Part shown: positions 4,485 to 55,630 of the stretch, one piece after another
Numbering within the stretch: position 1 is the first letter of the stretch
Layout of the letters: the number at the start of each line of letters is the position of its first letter
Sequence record: PZ445524.1
Source of the DNA: a phage
Length of the DNA stretch: 64,000 nt
Reading direction: 5' to 3' (one strand)
Translations under genes and position numbers: made by a program
Notes under the pieces: model-generated
Database searches by the model: none
Told to the model about the DNA's origin: nothing
The model's input: the letters and a program-made list of their open reading frames with translations, nothing else

Positions 4485-6072
<1,588 letters not shown>

Positions 6073-6099
6073 AATAAAATGGGCCTTGCGGCCCACTCC

Positions 6100-8367
6100 T
6101 TAAAAGTATTTTTTAAAACTCATCATAACTTTATCATCAACATCATTATCAATCTGTGCAACAAGGTAAGATGACAGTTCTACTTCTTGTGGCGCGGATT
6201 GAACATTATCAGAATTAAGATATTCACGAATCCAAGGATATGGATGTTTAACCGGAGCATCGGTAATTGGGCATGGAAGACCACACTGTTTCATACGAGA
6301 TACAGTTAAGTAATCAATAAAGCTCCACATGCTATTTGTATTTAATCCAGGAACATCGCCATCTTTAAATAAATGAACTGCCCAATCTTTTTCTTGGCGG
6401 TTAACTTCCATGAAAATATCAACTGCTTCTTGTTCACACTCTTGAGCAATTTTAACCCATTCATCGCCATCAGTACCGGATTGAAGTTGACGAATAATAT
6501 ATTGAGTGCCTTTAAGGTGAAGCTGCTCATCACGTGCAATGAACTTCATAATCTTGGCATTACCTTCCATGATTTCCATGTTCTTATGGAAGTTAAAGGT
6601 ACCGTATGTTCGATTGAGCTCGCTAATTCTCAACCCGTTCTCTTATGAACTGCTGCATGTTACCATGCAGTCCAGACTATATCACAATCCCGGAGGGATT
6701 CTCCCCATTTCGAGTCGCTTGACCCTACGTCCGAAGACTAGTCGTTGAACCTTGCTTTGCAATTGTCGCCGTGCCATCGTTTATATGTTGATGGTGATAA
6801 ATCTTTCTTACCACAATATGGACAATTCAATTGAATTCTATTTGGATTTAATTTACATCTGTCATTATGTTTTAGATAAAATCCAGGACCTTTACCAATG
6901 TGACCACAGAAATCACATGTGATTTCTTTTTGTGCAGGATGGGTCCCGTTCTTAACCATTTCTAATGTTTTTGCTGATGTTCTTTTCTTATGGTCTTCTG
7001 ATAAGAAATGATGTGAACCGTCATTTACCCGTTTTGATTGAGTTTCTGACTGCATTTTACCACCGCAAAATACATGAGTACCTTCTTTTATAGCTGCAAT
7101 ATTGCGTTCTTTAACTTTTGCAATATGCTCAGCTTGTTGAAAATTATGTATACCTAATGCAACTCTATTTAAATTAGATTTACGCTGTATTTCACCATCT
7201 AAAAGATGAAATGTACCATTTTCTATCTTAGATTTAATAGAGGCAATATTTTTAGCTCGTACTTCAGGGATATTAAAAATCTGGATTTCTCTAGATTTTG
7301 CGGCTTTAGAAGCTAATTCAGAAATTTCTTCAGGAGAATATTTCATTCTAAGCTTTATAGCATGACAAGCCTGGTAATCTTTTTGAGCTAAATGTATATC
7401 ATAATGTTCCTGTATAGAAAGGCACATCAAATTATCTAAATCATTATTTTCACGGTTACCGTCTTTATGATGGATTTCGTATGTTCTTCCATCAGAATCT
7501 TTAGGTATAGGTCCGTTAGCATCTATCCAAATTTTTCTATAGTTCAATTGTGCATCCTCTTAAAAGTATAATCATATTTATATTATACTAATTAAAGGTG
7601 CAAGCAAAACCTTGGCTGCTAGTTTTCCATAAAGGACTTTCCAGCAATTAAAGGAGTTTTCGATAAACGTTACCGTTTAAAGGCGCATTTTACGCAAAAG
7701 ATACATAAAAACGAATAGCTTCCAATGCGTTGATTACATGGAGGCAAAGGTAAAGAGATTTCATTAAAGCACGTTTAGCTTCGGCTTCTTGTTTAATAGC
7801 TCGGTTTAAACGAAAGACGGCATCAGGAGATTCTTTAGCTAGTTCTACAAATTCTTTAGCATTTTCCCATTCACGGGTTTTAATCAGAACATCATCATAA
7901 TAACGCCCAATGGATTCAGCACGTTTCATAATAGCTTCATCTAATACAATCTCATCAAATACCTTCGATGGATCAGTATAAAGATTTCGCATGATATGTG
8001 TATATGAACGGCTGTGAATAGTTTCACTAAAAGTCCACGTAGCAACCCATGTATCAAGACTTGGGTCTGAAATTAATGACATAAGTACAGCAGATGGCGC
8101 ACGACCCTGAATGCTATCCAAAAGTGATTGATACTTCAGGTTGTTAGTAAAAATATTTTGCTGATACTGAGGAAGCTTATTAAACTGTGCAGCATCCATC
8201 ATTAAGTTTACTTCTTCCGGGCGCCAGAAAAATGATAATTGCTTTTCGGTCAAATCTTCAAAAACTTTATGGCGTTGAATGTCATAACGCGCAATACCAA
8301 GACCTGAACCAAAAAACATAGGTTCTTTTAAAACATCAACTGGATTTGTATTAAAAACTGTAGACAT
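6100..8367 (-). CDS. nrdB: ribonucleotide reductase small subunit NrdB, interrupted by a group I intron (exon1 7692..8367, exon2 6100..6602)
   Basis: Exon 1 ends FYVSFA + U; joining to 6602 restores CTFNFHKNMEIMEGNAKIM, colinear with the R2 iron-ligand region; intron 3' nt is G. Confidence 0.85.
6603..7691 (-). mobile_element. group I intron in nrdB (about 1089 nt) carrying an HNH homing endonuclease ORF
   Basis: Exon frames only join across this interval; exon 1 ends in U, intron ends in G; boundaries inferred, not folded. Confidence 0.75.
6738..7547 (-). CDS. intron-encoded HNH homing endonuclease, I-TevIII-like, full length (269 aa)
   Basis: HNH motif EIHHKDGNRENNDLDNLMCLSIQEHYDIH; C-terminal Cys clusters CDFCGH and CPYCG; start is TTG with AAGAGGA SD, no in-frame ATG. 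Confidence 0.8.
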   Translation of the reverse strand: MNYRKIWIDANGPIPKDSDGRTYEIHHKDGNRENNDLDNLMCLSIQEHYDIHLAQKDYQACHAIKLRMKYSPEEISELASKAAKSREIQIFNIPEVRAKNIASIKSKIENGTFHLLDGEIQRKSNLNRVALGIHNFQQAEHIAKVKERNIAAIKEGTHVFCGGKMQSETQSKRVNDGSHHFLSEDHKKRTSAKTLEMVKNGTHPAQKEITCDFCGHIGKGPGFYLKHNDRCKLNPNRIQLNCPYCGKKDLSPSTYKRWHGDNCKARFND

Positions 8368-16152: not shown

Positions 16153-16196
16153 TACGTTTTCCTCATTTTAATAGGGGCTTGATAGCCCCTTGATAA

Positions 16197-16520: not shown

Positions 16521-16547
16521 TAAAAAAAGGGGACCCTAGAGGTCCCC
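16521..16547 (-). terminator. rho-independent terminator after gene 32
   Basis: - strand GGGGACC-UCUAG-GGUCCCC followed by UUUUUUUAUUUU. Confidence 0.8.
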
Positions 16548-28500: not shown

Positions 28501-29467
28501 TAATTGGAATAATTTAAGACCTTTCTCCATTAATATGGCTGATGGTCGCGTTGGTATGAACCATGGTCTAAATATTACCGGCGGTGGCTTGAATGTTACT
28601 GGTGGCTTGAATGTTACTAGTGGTAATACTAGTTTAGGTAATATCTCGTCTCGTGTAGTAGCAGGTTGGCGAGGAGCGTCTGGTTGGGCTGATAACTCGG
28701 ATACAATGAAATCTAAAATCACCTTTATGGCAGACCATGGGGATTTATCTAATTCAGGCAGTTATTATCCTATTGTAGGTGCATACAGCAACTATGGTTC
28801 AGCGGGTTATCGTCAAACCTTTGAATTTGGATGGGTCGGCTCTGGTACCACCGCTGGATGGCGAGAAGGTATTATTCGTATTCGCGGAGATAGTTCTAGC
28901 GGCCAGCAAGCAAGATGGCGATTTACAATGGATGGTATTTTAGATTGCCCGGGTAAAGTACAGATGCCACAAACAAGTGCATTTGGTGTCAATACAACAA
29001 ACGCACTTGGTGGAAACAGTATAACATTTGGTGATAGCGATACTGGTATTAAGCAAAATGGCGATGGATTATTAGACATATATGCGAACAACGTACAAGT
29101 ATTCCGTTTCCAAAACGGTGATTTGTACTCATACAAAAATATAAATGCTCCAAACGTTTATATTCGTTCTGATATTCGTTTAAAATCCAACTTTAAGCCT
29201 ATCGAAAATGCACTTGATAAAGTTGAAAAACTTAACGGTGTCATTTACGATAAAGCTGAATACATCGGTGGAGAGGCAATTGAAACTGAAGCAGGTATTG
29301 TGGCTCAAACGTTACAAGACGTTTTACCAGAAGCTGTCCGTGAAACAGAAGATAGCAAGGGTAATAAAATACTCACTGTTTCTTCTCAAGCCCAGATTGC
29401 TCTTCTAGTTGAAGCTGTGAAAACACTTTCTTCTCGTGTAAAAGAACTTGAATCTAAACTTATGTAA
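25574..29467 (+). CDS. 37: long tail fibre distal subunit gp37 with C-terminal S74-like intramolecular chaperone domain
   Basis: 1297 aa; N-terminus MATLKQIQFKRSK; last ~100 aa SDIRLK...GIVAQTLQDVLPEAV match the endosialidase-chaperone pattern. Confidence 0.9.
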   Translation: MATLKQIQFKRSKTAGARPAASVLAEGELAINLKDRTLFTKDDSGNIIDLSISAGGNISGNITQTGDYTQTGKFNLIGPQIVASGGYIEFNYRTTGSGAWSGQHTAKAPIFVDLSSATSTSEYNPIIKQRFKDGTFSVGTLVNEGSFKIHYINETGDSKYWTFNRNGNFQVVTGDLFVSNGNISASGNINSATGFVSAPQINTKTIVFDTKAFGQYDSQSLVQYVYPGTGETNGINYLRKVRAKSGGTIYHEIASAQTGKNDEISWWTGNTLTTKLMGLRNDGAMVLRRSLAIGTITTDENTNNYGSPTPMGERYIALGDAATGLKYIKQGVYDLVGNWNSVASITPDSFRSTRKALFGRSEDQGGTWIMPGTNAALLSVQTQADVNNAGDGQTHIGYNSGGKMSHYFRGKGQTNINTQEGMEVNPGILKLVTGSNNVQFYADGTVSSIQRIKFDNGLVLTGARPDGIQLDAPTTTDGTKTILWAGGTRPGQNKSYLSIKAWGNAFNASGDRARETVFEVGDGQGYHFYSQRVAPGSGSTVGPIQFRVNGGLLTAGSIVASGSITTESSLSVNNGMSVIGELKVGGTADNFRIWNAKYGAIFRRSEDSLYIIPTAINQGESGGISDIRPFSINLGTGSVAMGNHTQAGKNLFTVDNVSKLVQTDVRFRVNMDSDGIVLNASSQAASNFIQGRKADAPKWYLGIGDGGNVVRLHNYTYSHGIALNSDTVDITKPLKINNIRIGTDGNITGGTDNFANLNTTLNNKVNVGGWSGGATTGWYKFATVNIPQSTGTVSFKIYGGSGFNFKSYGQASVAEIILRTGNNNPKGLNATLWNRTSEAFSQIATVNTSNDTYDVYVYVGGYSNALVVEYSCTSNSTVTVVGVNGGIQPIVETLPEGHVVGKTVKLLNNIDGMFSAGESDIITRGEFVTNNQKGLRIKSRGNDIDSNAVIIRNDGGSFYILATDKNTSSNPDAASGNWNNLRPFSINMADGRVGMNHGLNITGGGLNVTGGLNVTSGNTSLGNISSRVVAGWRGASGWADNSDTMKSKITFMADHGDLSNSGSYYPIVGAYSNYGSAGYRQTFEFGWVGSGTTAGWREGIIRIRGDSSSGQQARWRFTMDGILDCPGKVQMPQTSAFGVNTTNALGGNSITFGDSDTGIKQNGDGLLDIYANNVQVFRFQNGDLYSYKNINAPNVYIRSDIRLKSNFKPIENALDKVEKLNGVIYDKAEYIGGEAIETEAGIVAQTLQDVLPEAVRETEDSKGNKILTVSSQAQIALLVEAVKTLSSRVKELESKLM

Positions 29468-29469
29468 AA

Positions 29470-29487
29470 GAGGGCTTCGGCCCTCTA
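29470..29487 (+). other. UUCG-tetraloop hairpin between genes 37 and 38
   Basis: AGAGGGC-UUCG-GCCCUCU directly after the gene 37 stop, 10 nt before the gene 38 SD. Confidence 0.6.
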
Positions 29488-29497
29488 AGGATTTTTA

Positions 29498-30283
29498 ATG
29501 GCAATTGTAGGTGTTCCTGGCTGGATTGGTGAATCTGCCGTGAATGAAACTGGACAACGTTGGATGGATGCTGCGATGAAAGCTGTTCGTGTTTCAGTTC
29601 CCGGCTGGATGAGCTCAATGGCTGGGCAATCTAAAGAAGTATATTATAGCGTTGGTGCTAGTAATTCTTATAATAAAGACACACTAATAAATTGGATAAA
29701 AGCCCAAGGTAGTACTCCTGTTGTTATTACAATTACAGGAAATATTGTTTCTCAATCTACAGGTGTTCCATGCTTAGATTTTCCTAGCTCATTAACTAAT
29801 GCATACGTGACACTTAATATCAATTCAGGCGTGTATGTTTGGGGTCGCGGCGGTAATGGTGGAAATAACTCTGCTGGTGGAGCAGGAGGAACTGCAATAA
29901 ATAACGGAATTGGAACTAGATTACGTATTAACAACAATGGTGTTATCGCAGGCGGTGGCGGCGGTGGCGGTGGTGGGTATTATTCTCCTATGTCACAAAT
30001 GAAATTAACCTTTGGCGGTGGCGGCGGTCGTCCGTTTGGTGCTGCTGGTGGATCTGCCAACATGCAATCAGGCGCAACTGCTGGTACTATTTCCGCGCCA
30101 GGTAAAGGGTCTGTCAACGGTGTCTATAATGGCGGAAACGGCGGTGATGCTGGTGCCGCAGGTGGTAAATGTAATATTCGTGGTCAAGGATCAGAATATA
30201 ACGGCGGTGCTGCGGGTAAAGCTGTTACTGGTAATGCTCCAACTTGGACTAAAGTTGGTACAATATACGGTTCAAGAGTATAA
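29498..30283 (+). CDS. 38: receptor-recognising adhesin gp38 (T2-type, glycine-rich)
   Basis: 261 aa; poly-Gly tracts (GGGGGGGGGYY, FGGGGGRPFGAAGG) separating short variable segments. Confidence 0.85.
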   Translation: MAIVGVPGWIGESAVNETGQRWMDAAMKAVRVSVPGWMSSMAGQSKEVYYSVGASNSYNKDTLINWIKAQGSTPVVITITGNIVSQSTGVPCLDFPSSLTNAYVTLNINSGVYVWGRGGNGGNNSAGGAGGTAINNGIGTRLRINNNGVIAGGGGGGGGGYYSPMSQMKLTFGGGGGRPFGAAGGSANMQSGATAGTISAPGKGSVNGVYNGGNGGDAGAAGGKCNIRGQGSEYNGGAAGKAVTGNAPTWTKVGTIYGSRV

Positions 30284-33790: not shown

Positions 33791-33822
33791 GAAATAAAAA
33801 AAGGGAGAGCCTCGGCTCTCCC
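33791..33822 (-). terminator. rho-independent terminator downstream of gene 52 and the 49-aa peptide
   Basis: - strand GGGAGAGCC-GA-GGCUCUCCC followed by a U-run. Confidence 0.75.
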
Positions 33823-33827
33823 TAAAA

Positions 33828-35771: not shown

Positions 35772-35852
35772 TCACTGGCGTCCGAAGACGCCTTTGGTTT
35801 TAAGATTGTTACGATAGAACTGCATCACATGTTCGTTATGGAAATTACTCAT
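35772..35852 (-). CDS. stp: Stp peptide (26 aa)
   Basis: Hand-translated [26 protein letters not shown], matching my recollection of T4 Stp; ATG overlaps ndd stop. Confidence 0.8.
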
Positions 35853-38378: not shown

Positions 38379-38444
38379 TTAAACTTTCCTTTATGTCGGA
38401 ATCACCGATATTCATATAATAAATCATAATTTCTCTTAAAACAA

Positions 38445-38466
38445 AAGGGCCGAAGCCCTTATTTAT
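38445..38466 (-). repeat. intercistronic hairpin element, copy 1 (AAGGGC-tetraloop-GCCCUU + AUUUA)
   Basis: Near-identical ~21-nt sequence also at 38676-38696. Confidence 0.6.
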
Positions 38467-38657: not shown

Positions 38658-38675
38658 AATTTTCCTTAATATGAT

Positions 38676-38696
38676 AAGGGCCGAAGCCCTTATTTA
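38676..38696 (-). repeat. intercistronic hairpin element, copy 2, immediately after the rIIB stop
   Basis: Same sequence as 38445-38466; overlaps the rIIB stop codon. Confidence 0.6.
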
Positions 38697-39639: not shown

Positions 39640-41817
39640 TTAGGCCGCAAGGGCCTTCATAGTTTTAGCGATTTGGGAAACTTCATCATCACTTAAAGAG
39701 TTGCGATAACCGATGAAGTCGGAAACAATACGGAATTTCTTGGTAAACTCAGCAACCATTTTATCACTGTTTTTTGAAGCATTATTTGATAATACATCAA
39801 AAAGATTAGTTACTGTCCAGATGTCATGACCGATGGTATCTTTTCCACCATTAAAATATACACCCTGTAATGAACTAACCATATTAGCAAGTCGTGTATA
39901 TTCTTCAGAAACTTCATCTACACTGAAGTACTTCATCATAAAATCTAACTCAGGATACTTGATAATTTTATCAATATATCGTTTAGCTGAACTTGAATAA
40001 CCTACATACTTATCATAATCTACATCATCAAAAGCATCTACATATAAATCACGCAAAGCTTCAAAAATACATTGGCACTGACCGAGTTCTTTTACCTTTT
40101 TCTGTAAAAGCGGACGAATAACATAAAATTCATTAATGCCAATAAGATTAGCCATACGAATCAAAATATTCATAGATGGATGACAAAGAGATGTAGTACC
40201 ATCCATAGAGAAAATATCAGAACGATGCATATACGCTACATAACCAGTAATTTCATCTGCTTCTGATGTGAGCGTAAATAATTCCTCTTTTTCCCAGCGC
40301 CCATCTTTAATTTCAAACTTAAATGCTGTAGCAGCTTTAGGACGAGGAGCTTTACTTTTAACTACCTTTGGAATATAGCTTTTAACTAAAGCTTCAATTT
40401 CTGACAAATAATGAATGTTAACTTCATCACTTTCAAACATCGCCATAATATCAGGAAGTAAATCAATCTGCGATTCTACTTCTGGATTAATAAACAGAAG
40501 ACGCTCATTGTGATGAATATTCAAAGTGTTATTAAATTCACTATCATCTAACGCATGCGCTAATCCACGAACAATATTAACACGATTTTTAATATTATCA
40601 ATAACGATATTAATTTTTGTTGTATTAATACCAAACAGACGATAACTTGATGCAACGGCTGAAGTTTCATGACTTTGCTTAATGCGCTTCAGTCGAGGGT
40701 CAAGATTTACTTCATACACAACTCCTGCATTGCATAACTTACTGTCAGGTTCAAACATGCTCTGCATCTTTTTATATGACAGATTTTTAGTCGTGAATTT
40801 GACTGAATTACTAATCATATAATCTCGAGCAGAATACCCCATCTTCATCAATTCACGATATGTGTGACGAGGAGATGTAGATTCTTTAAATCGTTTTACA
40901 TCTTCATTAAATGCTTTCTCACTGAGTTCTTTAACTCGTTCAATAATATTTTTACGAGTACGATCATCCAGTGAAAGAGCCTCGCGTGATGGAGCAATAT
41001 CCAATGAACCCATTGGAAACTTAATGTAATTCACTTCATTGCGAATGCTTAGCCAGTTACGGTCTCTAATAACACCATCGATAGGATAAACAATACCGCC
41101 GTAGATAGCATATAATCCACCACGATCAGGCCAGTATCTTTCTGGATTTACGCCGTAATAATCATCGAAATCCGGAAAATAATCAATTTCGCGGTCAAGA
41201 CCATTAATGATAGCCAAATCTTTGAATGGTCGCATGATATAAGAAACTTCATAAGCAAAGTTTCTAAAGTCTTTTTCTTCAACTGGAACTACGATTTCAA
41301 TACCAGTTTTATCATCTGGACCCATTTCTTTTACGAATGTAGGTTTAATTTGTGGACCATCGCCATCCATGTAAGCTACATAACCACGAATTTCACCTTT
41401 ATGATACGAAGTAATACTAAATGTATCAGTATAACTAAATGGAGATTTAGAACCTAAACCAAATCCGCCAATGAAATCGTTAGATTCAGCCTTAGATGAA
41501 CTGAAGTATGAATTATACAAACCAGGAGAATTATCATCACCCTGAATATCAAAATCACTCATACCCGGACCAAAATCTCGACAAACAAATCGTGGGTCTA
41601 AACGTCCAGGAACTTGTATGATAAATTTTTCAGGATTTCCATTAAGTGCATGGGCATCAATCATGTTGGTAATCAATTCACGGACTACTGCGCGAATCTT
41701 GTTTGTATACAAATCAGATGATAGAATTTTAAATACTTTAGGAGATGCTGTGATGCTAAATGCTTTTGATTTAGAACCATTACCAAGAATTGTTTCTTTT
41801 TCAGTGGTGATAATCAT
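39640..41817 (-). CDS. rIIA: rapid-lysis protein rIIA (GHKL-type ATPase-like N-terminus)
   Basis: 725 aa; N-terminal ATP-binding motifs ELITNMIDA and FGLGSKSPF. Confidence 0.92.
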
Positions 41818-42086: not shown

Positions 42087-42618
42087 TACTGGCTCATCCA
42101 TTCTTTACGAAGGTCAGCATTATCTCCCATGAGCATTTCAAAAAGCTCTTTCCAGTTCTCAGGAAGTTTAACAACATCATATACTGGATTTTGAATCATT
42201 TCACGATATTCAGATTTTTCCAAAGAGCCAAGTCCTTTAATATAACGGATGCTATGTTTAGGTAAAGCATCTTTAGCACTCTCATATTCAGCGACTGTAT
42301 AAAACCATTCTTGTTTTTTACCGACCTGAGCGATGATTACAGGAGTTTTGACAAAGCGAATTCTTCCTTGTTCAAACAGTTCTGGCCAATTACTAAAAAA
42401 TCCGAGCAAAGAAGGATAAATAGAACCTAATCCAATAATCTCTTAATTATGAGGTATTTCTATAGATAGCCCGAAGGCTATCCATCGTGATCTGCGTCTG
42501 TCATAATAGCGACATTCGCATAGTTCATTGAAGAGGATTTAATAGAACGACGAACATTGTTCTGCAATTTATATTTTTTCATATCAACGCTAGAAGAATC
42601 AATTTTTACAAATTTCAT
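42086..42618 (-). CDS. 60: DNA topoisomerase II small subunit gp60, with 50-nt translational bypass (codons 1-46 at 42481..42618, codons 47-160 at 42086..42430)
   Basis: ATG 42616-42618 (MKFVKIDSS); codon 46 GGA then UAG; landing GGA 42431-42433; resumes UUA GGU (LGSIYPS...). Confidence 0.9.
42431..42483 (-). other. gene 60 translational bypass element (take-off GGA, UAG stop, stem-loop, landing GGA)
   Basis: - strand reads GGA UAGCCUUCGGGCUAUC...UUAUU GGA; UUCG tetraloop hairpin directly 3' of the take-off codon. Confidence 0.85.
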
Positions 42619-44945: not shown

Positions 44946-45014
44946 CACTTATCCTCGTTTGGTTTCGGGAATATTATACTCCAATAATCATAAAGCTAAA
45001 GGCCCGAAGGCCTT

Positions 45015-45275
45015 TTATTTAAAACGAATAGTCGAATCCTTGAAGAATAGTCCAGAACATACTGTTCCTTCTACTTTCTGCCCAGTAGGTCCAATAGCAC
45101 GAAATCCAGTATGCTGGAAATCATTTTCAGAGCAACCGAACCAATTATATCCAGTGATTTCAATATTAGTAAAACCACTTGAAGACAAAACTTTGGTTGC
45201 ATTATCAGCATCAGTACATCCTATTAAAGACACTGCTAATACTAATGCTGCAATAGAACGATTAATATATTTCAT
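45015..45275 (-). CDS. putative lipoprotein (86 aa)
   Basis: Signal peptide with lipobox SLIGC. Confidence 0.5.
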   Translation of the reverse strand: MKYINRSIAALVLAVSLIGCTDADNATKVLSSSGFTNIEITGYNWFGCSENDFQHTGFRAIGPTGQKVEGTVCSGLFFKDSTIRFK

Positions 45276-55597: not shown

Positions 55598-55623
55598 GAA
55601 AAAAGGACTCCCGAAGGAGTCCT
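55598..55623 (-). terminator. rho-independent terminator after soc
   Basis: - strand AGGACUCC-UUCG-GGAGUCCU followed by UUUUUUCAUUU. Confidence 0.75.
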
Positions 55624-55630
55624 TGAATTA

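Follow-up and report, generated by a model that had tools for sequence, protein, structure and literature searches.

In bacteriophage T4, genes 38 and 25 carry an RNA structure between the Shine-Dalgarno (SD) sequence and the AUG that shortens an over-long spacing to a functional distance (PMC3014915). Folding changes this spacing from 22 to 5 nt in gene 38 and from 27 to 11 nt in gene 25; both hairpins enhance initiation, and mutations that destabilize them lower it (PMC3014915). The gene 25 arrangement is restricted to close T-even relatives (PMC3014915, summarizing Nivinskas et al. 1999 and Malys & Nivinskas 2009). Here, we investigated the junction between nrdB and denA, the gene for endonuclease II (EndoII), in a 64,000-nt stretch of phage DNA (sequence record PZ445524.1). 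This whole stretch, referred to below as the window, is a segment of a T4-like (Tequatrovirus, RB3-like) genome. Judged by comparison of relatives, structure prediction and analogy, the hairpin at this junction is moderately likely to form a spacer that loops out in a split ("accommodated") ribosome-binding site (RBS) of denA, built to the gene 38 design. denA would thereby be a probable third example of a known mechanism, not a new mechanism; the review by Uzan and Miller names only genes 38 and 25 (PMC3014915).

On the minus strand of the window, nrdB exon 2 (6633-6100) is followed by denA (6072-5662) and rnlA, and the nrdB-denA junction reads UAAGGAG-U-GGGCC-GCAA-GGCCC-A-UUUUAUU-AUG (6102..6070; Table 1). 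The junction sequence of phage T4 is identical, and the 1.2 kb around it show 98.4-99.2% identity to the best-matching 30 T-even phage records. A first-pass annotation of this DNA had described an SD-like element overlapping the nrdB stop, about 27 nt from the denA ATG, as the only one upstream of the gene, and this was confirmed. The tail preceding the ATG forms no duplex with the 16S 3' end (+2.8 kcal/mol), compared to -8.7 kcal/mol for UAAGGAG, in which GGAG abuts the UAA and AAGGAG overlaps it. The first G of GGAG precedes the A of the ATG by 27 nt, leaving a gap of 23 nt in the linear RNA, which is reduced to 7 nt after folding of the 16-nt hairpin. No promoter consensus was found between nrdB exon 2 and denA, so that every denA mRNA carries the hairpin. 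No Rfam family matched the hairpin, the sole overlap being a chance-level hit to L20_leader (E = 0.3, 22 bits compared to a gathering score of 58.7).

The core of the hairpin consists of GGGCC (6094-6090) paired with GGCCC (6085-6081), and a sixth pair, U6095-A6080, is possible. RNA folding, which the first-pass annotation had put forward as a check, gave a minimum free energy (MFE) of -18 kcal/mol for a 61-nt context (z = -3.4), with 3 of 200 shuffled sequences folding equally well. The 16-nt hairpin alone reached -11.6 kcal/mol, and its pairing probability was ~1.0 in all three contexts folded. The same annotation had placed the hairpin between the SD and the start codon, which proved correct in part: GGGCC-GCAA-GGCCC does lie in the spacer, but in the thermodynamic model the helix continues through GGAG by G.U, A-U and G.U pairs with UUUU (6079-6076), for about -3.3 kcal/mol. 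With this predicted GGAG-UUUU pairing, the hairpin of the window phage is not cleanly between the SD and the AUG.

We compared the denA junction with the two described systems. The T4 gene 37-38 junction reads UAAGGAG-AGGGGCUUCGGCCCUU-CUAAAU-AUG and shares with denA a UAAGGAG over the upstream stop, a GC-rich extra-stable tetraloop hairpin directly after it, a short SD-free tail and the AUG. The linear spacing is 22 nt in gene 38 and 23 nt in denA, the folded spacing 5 and 7 nt, respectively, and in both genes the end of GGAG is drawn into the lower part of the predicted helix. The two differ in the loop (UUCG in gene 38, GCAA in the window denA), in the tail, which is U-rich and terminator-like in denA but not in gene 38 (CUAAAU), and in timing, since gene 38 is late and denA prereplicative. 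Moreover, the effect in gene 38 is known by experiment, whereas the denA case is known here from sequence and prediction. Gene 25 resembles denA in that a distal SD is brought to a working distance by an intervening hairpin, and both arrangements are absent in distant T4-like genera. However, the hairpin of gene 25 has a higher AU content and is less stable (-6.4 versus -11.6 kcal/mol), the SD is GAGG with a spacing that goes from 27 to 11 nt, and gene 25 begins before gene 26 ends, whereas a true intergenic gap precedes denA.

The same kinship emerged from a scan of the assembled T4 genome, which covered all 2325 ATG-initiated open reading frames (ORFs) of at least 25 aa. The scan required an SD duplex of -5 kcal/mol or lower ending at most 5 nt from a Watson-Crick hairpin of -5 kcal/mol or lower, followed by an SD-free tail of 3-12 nt. 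Four ATGs were returned, namely the starts of gene 25, gene 38 and denA and one ATG internal to gene 37. Thus, the scan finds both known cases and adds exactly one further gene start, that of denA. An earlier T4 scan that allowed G.U pairs in the stem missed denA, because the stem took in GGAG, and gave three internal-ATG false positives; it was replaced by the Watson-Crick-only version. In the window, the explicit order of SD, hairpin, tail and ATG was found for denA only among 896 ATG-initiated ORFs, and among 71 long ORFs denA alone combined a strong distal SD (-8.8 kcal/mol in -45..-21) with the lack of a usable proximal SD. denA thus shows these sequence and structural features of the split-SD class: an SD more than about 15 nt away in the linear RNA, no SD at canonical spacing, a spacer hairpin, a folded spacing within the functional range of about 5-11 nt and compensatory conservation.

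Two further observations concern the gene 37-38 module. In the window phage, the gene 37-38 junction (29460-29500, plus strand) reads UAAA-AGAGGGC-UUCG-GCCCUCU-A-AGGAUUUUUA-AUG, with the SD 3' of the hairpin; gene 38 of the window is T2-type (its product starts MAIVGVPGW) and unrelated to T4 gene 38, which has its SD 5' of the hairpin. In one Klebsiella-type lineage (L021/L023/L026), the nrdB-denA junction UAAGGAGAGGGCCUUCGGGCCCUUCUGUUAUG is near-identical to the T4 gene 37-38 junction UAAGGAGAGGGGCUUCGGCCCUUCUAAAUAUG (T4 159620-159651). This likeness could have arisen by convergence, both junctions facing the same constraints, or the two could share a cassette.

We then examined conservation in 23 distinct nrdB-denA junctions of Tevenvirinae, taken from IMG/VR denA loci and annotated phage records, in phages whose DenA is 57-99% identical to that of the window. 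Assigned from annotated records at matching identity, the set includes relatives of Mosigvirus/Dhakavirus-type coliphages and of Salmonella, Klebsiella, Enterobacter, Edwardsiella, Citrobacter (Moonvirus), Serratia and Yersinia phages. All 23 junctions keep AAGG or GGAG overlapping the nrdB stop, always 5' of the hairpin; GG(A/U/C), GAG or GGAG stands directly 3' of the stop, and in one junction (L071) the stop is UAG and the SD accordingly UAGGAG. A GC-rich hairpin with a stable loop (mostly UUCG, else GCAA, GUAA, UUUG, UUAG or CUUGA) is likewise found in all 23, followed in each case by an SD-free tail of 6-10 nt and the ATG. Loops are swapped wholesale among stable tetraloops, indicating selection on stability and not on loop sequence.

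The stem sequences vary as well (GGGCC, GGGGC, GGGAC, GGGAGAC, AGGGC, GAGGGC, CAGGGC and others), and pairing is nevertheless kept: 88.8% of the cells in the alignment are paired, and changes on both sides occur in five of the seven pairs. In none of 500 shuffles did the covariation score or the share of paired cells come up to the value observed, and slid-register controls gave far lower scores in every register. RNAalifold independently returned a 6-bp consensus helix that excludes the SD. Furthermore, although hairpins differ in length between 12 and 18 nt, the unpaired stretch from the AGG core to the ATG measures 7-11 nt in 22 of the 23 variants. Such a constant spacing despite variable hairpin length is what a requirement for a given folded SD-AUG distance predicts. 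Two claims of the first-pass annotation were supported by these results, namely that folding brings the SD to a functional distance and that the arrangement is the split-SD one of some T4 genes, the latter also by the matching gene 37-38 layout and by the T4 scan that groups denA with genes 25 and 38. Chance occurrence of the denA arrangement was considered separately and rejected on covariation and scan statistics.

More distant genera lack the arrangement. In Krischvirus, a hairpin is followed by a normal SD, and in Aeromonas phages 25 and Aeh1, in RB16 and in Slopekvirus, a different upstream gene abuts or overlaps the denA start. More distant DenA-like matches (L077-L081; 40-42% identity, on contigs of 37-152 kb) lack the nrdB context and are uninformative.

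The long spacing would need no explanation if denA started not at the AUG but at the in-frame GUG (6096-6094), 3 nt after the nrdB stop, giving a protein of 144 aa with the hairpin inside the coding sequence. The T4 records AF158101.6 and NC_000866.4 do annotate denA at 137517..137951, that is, with this GUG start (T4 position 137951 corresponds to window position 6096), and the frame is open from the GUG to the AUG. However, no spacer separates UAAGGA from the GUG, which itself lies inside the stem. An in-frame upstream start of any kind exists in only 3 of 21 variants, the intergenic lengths of 24-32 nt are often not multiples of 3, and where the junction sequence changes, it is the pairing and not the codons that is maintained. 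The N-terminus MKxIA (M1-K2-x-I4-A5) is conserved, and the RB3-family records as well as structural and biochemical work on EndoII use the 136-aa protein; the construct in PDB 2WSH starts with MKEIATEY after the tag. These comparative data favor the AUG start (136 aa) over the GUG start (144 aa), and we regard initiation at the GUG as very improbable.

The split site could work as follows. Lacking a nearby promoter of its own, denA would be read from transcripts running through nrdB, on which its sole SD, UAAGGAG, lies over the nrdB UAA and, at 23 nt from the AUG, would be too far away in the linear RNA. Folding of the 6-bp hairpin capped by C(GCAA)G would bring the SD and the AUG to within 7 unpaired nucleotides (UUUUAUU), and the 30S subunit could then hold the SD:anti-SD duplex while the AUG occupies the P site and the hairpin protrudes. 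We infer that the ribosome uses UAAGGAG and that denA is translated more when the hairpin is folded. A constitutive structural requirement would fit the data; the control of endonuclease II suggested in the first-pass annotation, if taken as a regulated switch, would go beyond them. A translational role of this kind would be an overlay on a class of post-stop hairpins common in the window, made possible by the position of the SD 5' of the hairpin.

In another account, the hairpin serves solely to terminate or attenuate transcription or to protect the nrdB 3' end, and denA is weakly translated from read-through RNA with no real contribution of the upstream GGAG, the SD-like sequence being incidental. 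Indeed, the GC-rich stem is followed by UUUUAUU and obtains a d'Aubenton-Carafa-type score of +24.7, on a scale on which, in the window, a weak terminator scores +13.5, strong ones +49 to +56 and most other intercistronic hairpins -65 to -33. The element is annotated as a terminator in phages G8 (-15.3) and Merlin, stable tetraloop hairpins straight after stops are common in the window genome, and a low level of a DNA-degrading nuclease is plausible. A nearby precedent exists in mobE, where a weak terminator with a short U-tract was demonstrated by experiment (PMC2790892); as at denA, a stem-loop is followed by a short U-tract and the downstream genes need read-through. However, the U-tract at the denA hairpin is not conserved in relatives. 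The terminator score is positive in only 10 of the 23 junctions and strongly negative in several (-43 to -23), and the tails of L031 and L033, GUAAAGCU and AUAAAGCU, have no U-tract at all. A consensus terminator scan made no call in 5400-6800, which we think is due to extension of the stem by G.T pairs into the U-tract, while the score of +24.7 fixes a 6-bp stem. With no promoter 3' of the hairpin, termination must in any case be leaky or partial. A terminator-only model leaves unexplained why AAGG or GGAG after the stop and a tail of 6-10 nt are conserved while their neighbors vary, and the gene 38 hairpin of equivalent layout has no U-tract and is a translational element. We therefore hold this account, taken as the whole function of the hairpin, to be unlikely. 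Weak termination or 3'-end protection is a likely second function alongside a translational one, and the hairpin probably does protect the nrdB 3' end or terminate a fraction of the transcripts.

Translational coupling offers another explanation: ribosomes finishing nrdB would unwind the hairpin, be held by the stop-overlapping SD and restart at the denA AUG, so that denA output would depend on nrdB translation and not on de novo 30S binding. All variants, the UAG one among them, have the SD overlapping the nrdB stop, and denA overlaps nrdB as UUAUGA in Yersinia phage fHe-Yen9-01. Together with the abutting or overlapping starts in the Aeromonas phages, RB16 and Slopekvirus, this indicates that coupling is a recurrent solution for denA. 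Coupling would not need a conserved, very stable hairpin, however, and once the hairpin is melted the restart codon lies 27 nt 3' of the stop, which is long for efficient reinitiation. Furthermore, for gene 38, which is laid out alike, the review describes a split SD dependent on folding (PMC3014915). We find coupling as the main explanation distinctly unlikely.

The split-site reading has to be weighed against several observations that do not favor it, among which are the positive terminator score and the terminator annotations mentioned above. For the window and T4 alike, the model pairs GGAG with the U tail, giving unpaired probabilities of 0.01-0.05 for G6098, A6097 and G6096, and such pairing would lower, not raise, the availability of the SD. 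Opening it would cost 3.3 kcal/mol, less than the SD:anti-SD duplex contributes (-8.7 kcal/mol), and the RNAalifold consensus does not include the GGAG-tail pairing. A ribosome that terminates on nrdB covers the SD and would melt the hairpin. The junction variants share a common descent and amount to perhaps a dozen independent lineages. Finally, fHe-Yen9-01 (KY593455.1, L028 1490-1510) has neither SD nor hairpin nor tail, and this loss shows the module to be dispensable. The similarity of fHe-Yen9-01 to phiR1-RT and TG1 starts at the denA start, and the nrdB 3' end upstream matches only other phages (~81%, e.g., VR5), a pattern in the sequences that suggests a recombination junction; the Yersinia relative TG1 (contig L025) retains the module.

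A more elaborate variant would combine folding with coupling. The stop-overlapping SD and a fast-folding hairpin would act as a valve metering nuclease output to nrdB translation: a terminating ribosome would melt the hairpin and occlude the SD, and refolding would reset the split SD, allowing recapture of that ribosome or entry of one new 30S subunit. We consider this valve a long shot. If it were true, a host-DNA-degrading nuclease would be tied to the translation of ribonucleotide reductase, linking nucleotide scavenging to deoxynucleoside triphosphate (dNTP) synthesis, and the gene 37-38 module would set the stoichiometry of tail-fiber protein to chaperone.

Our literature search found no study of the denA initiation region and no T4 3'-end or ribosome-profiling data, and an older mention of denA is possible. 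If the split-site reading is true, the few proven split ribosome-binding sites, those of T4 genes 38 and 25, would be joined by a third that is conserved across genera, and the 23 natural variants are a ready-made mutational series; what is known of how split sites work would be left unchanged. The junction also gives grounds for revising the T4 reference records so that denA begins at the AUG (136 aa) and no longer at the GUG (144 aa). It further serves as a warning that automated pipelines call such an element a terminator and leave denA without an RBS: in Citrobacter phage Merlin (NC_028857.1, L083 678-700), RBSs are annotated for the two genes downstream of denA and none for denA. A simple search for SD, hairpin, tail and ATG gives few false positives, and the class can thus be surveyed in other phages.

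Table 1. Features of the nrdB-denA junction and other post-stop hairpins in the window
Feature	Position	Strand	Comment
nrdB exon 2 stop codon UAA	6100..6102	-	ORF 6100..6633; RB3 and T4 annotation of the homologous region
SD element UAAGGAG (GGAG = 6099-6096)	6096..6102	-	Overlaps the nrdB stop; only SD available to denA
Hairpin UGGGCC-GCAA-GGCCCA	6080..6095	-	5' arm 6095-6090, GNRA tetraloop 6089-6086, 3' arm 6085-6080
Possible extended helix GGAG (6099-6096) x UUUU (6079-6076)	6076..6099	-	In MFE structures; would partly mask the SD
U-rich 7-nt tail UUUUAUU	6073..6079	-	Effective SD-AUG spacer if the hairpin is folded; U-tract of a possible weak terminator
denA, endonuclease II, 136 aa	5662..6072	-	ATG 6072-6070; 100-99% identical to annotated EndoII proteins
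In-frame GUG in the 5' arm of the stem	6094..6096	-	Start codon of the 144-aa denA in T4 reference records; unlikely to be the true start
Intercistronic UUCG-type hairpins	39641-39656, 38673-38693, 38444-38460, 35776-35792, 16172-16190, 44997-45015, 42464-42482	-	Short GC stems a few nt after stops
Post-stop tetraloop hairpin	29469-29487	+	Gene 37-38 junction

About ten other stable tetraloop hairpins lie just 3' of stop codons in the window. The UUCG-type set among them looks like generic intercistronic stabilizer hairpins, and its scored members have no U-tract and strongly negative terminator scores. Tuerk et al. reportedly described in 1988 extra-stable intercistronic hairpins of the C(UUCG)G type in T4. 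By its C(GCAA)G loop and its start 4-5 nt after the UAA, the denA hairpin belongs to this common T4-type intercistronic class, which we take to be that of Tuerk et al. It shares with the class a short GC stem, a UUCG or GNRA loop closed by C-G and a position just after a stop, and most of its homologues at denA are C(UUCG)G. In the six window hairpins with a readable downstream SD, however, the next gene has its SD 3' of the hairpin, and 10-19 nt separate the hairpin from the ATG. denA alone has its SD 5' of the hairpin, and with the longer tails of the other hairpins this makes the denA geometry specific.

Two other ideas about the SD were considered. Conserved masking by the lower stem was discarded as a general feature, since lineages range from strong masking of the SD to none. 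Targeting by RegB, an endoribonuclease acting on GGAG in the SD of prereplicative genes, would call for an accessible GGAG, conserved where RegB acts. As a target, GGAG is not conserved, being present in only 7 of the 23 junction variants; in the window phage, it is predicted to be paired.

Elsewhere on the minus strand, three hairpins with long U-tracts (16528-16547, 33801-33823 and 55602-55624) obtained terminator scores of +56, +49 and +13.5, respectively. For the first two, an A-tract precedes the hairpin on the plus strand, and these could be bidirectional terminators. We also observed that nrdB is interrupted by a group I intron (6634-7690, minus strand), within which Rfam Intron_gpI matched at 6653-6893 with 36 bits, below the gathering score. 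The intron ORF is full-length, with 269 aa, and I-TevIII-like (7547-6738), as it is in RB3, whereas the T4 copy is truncated. Just upstream of this ORF, a late-promoter consensus, TATAAATA, is found at 7582-7575.

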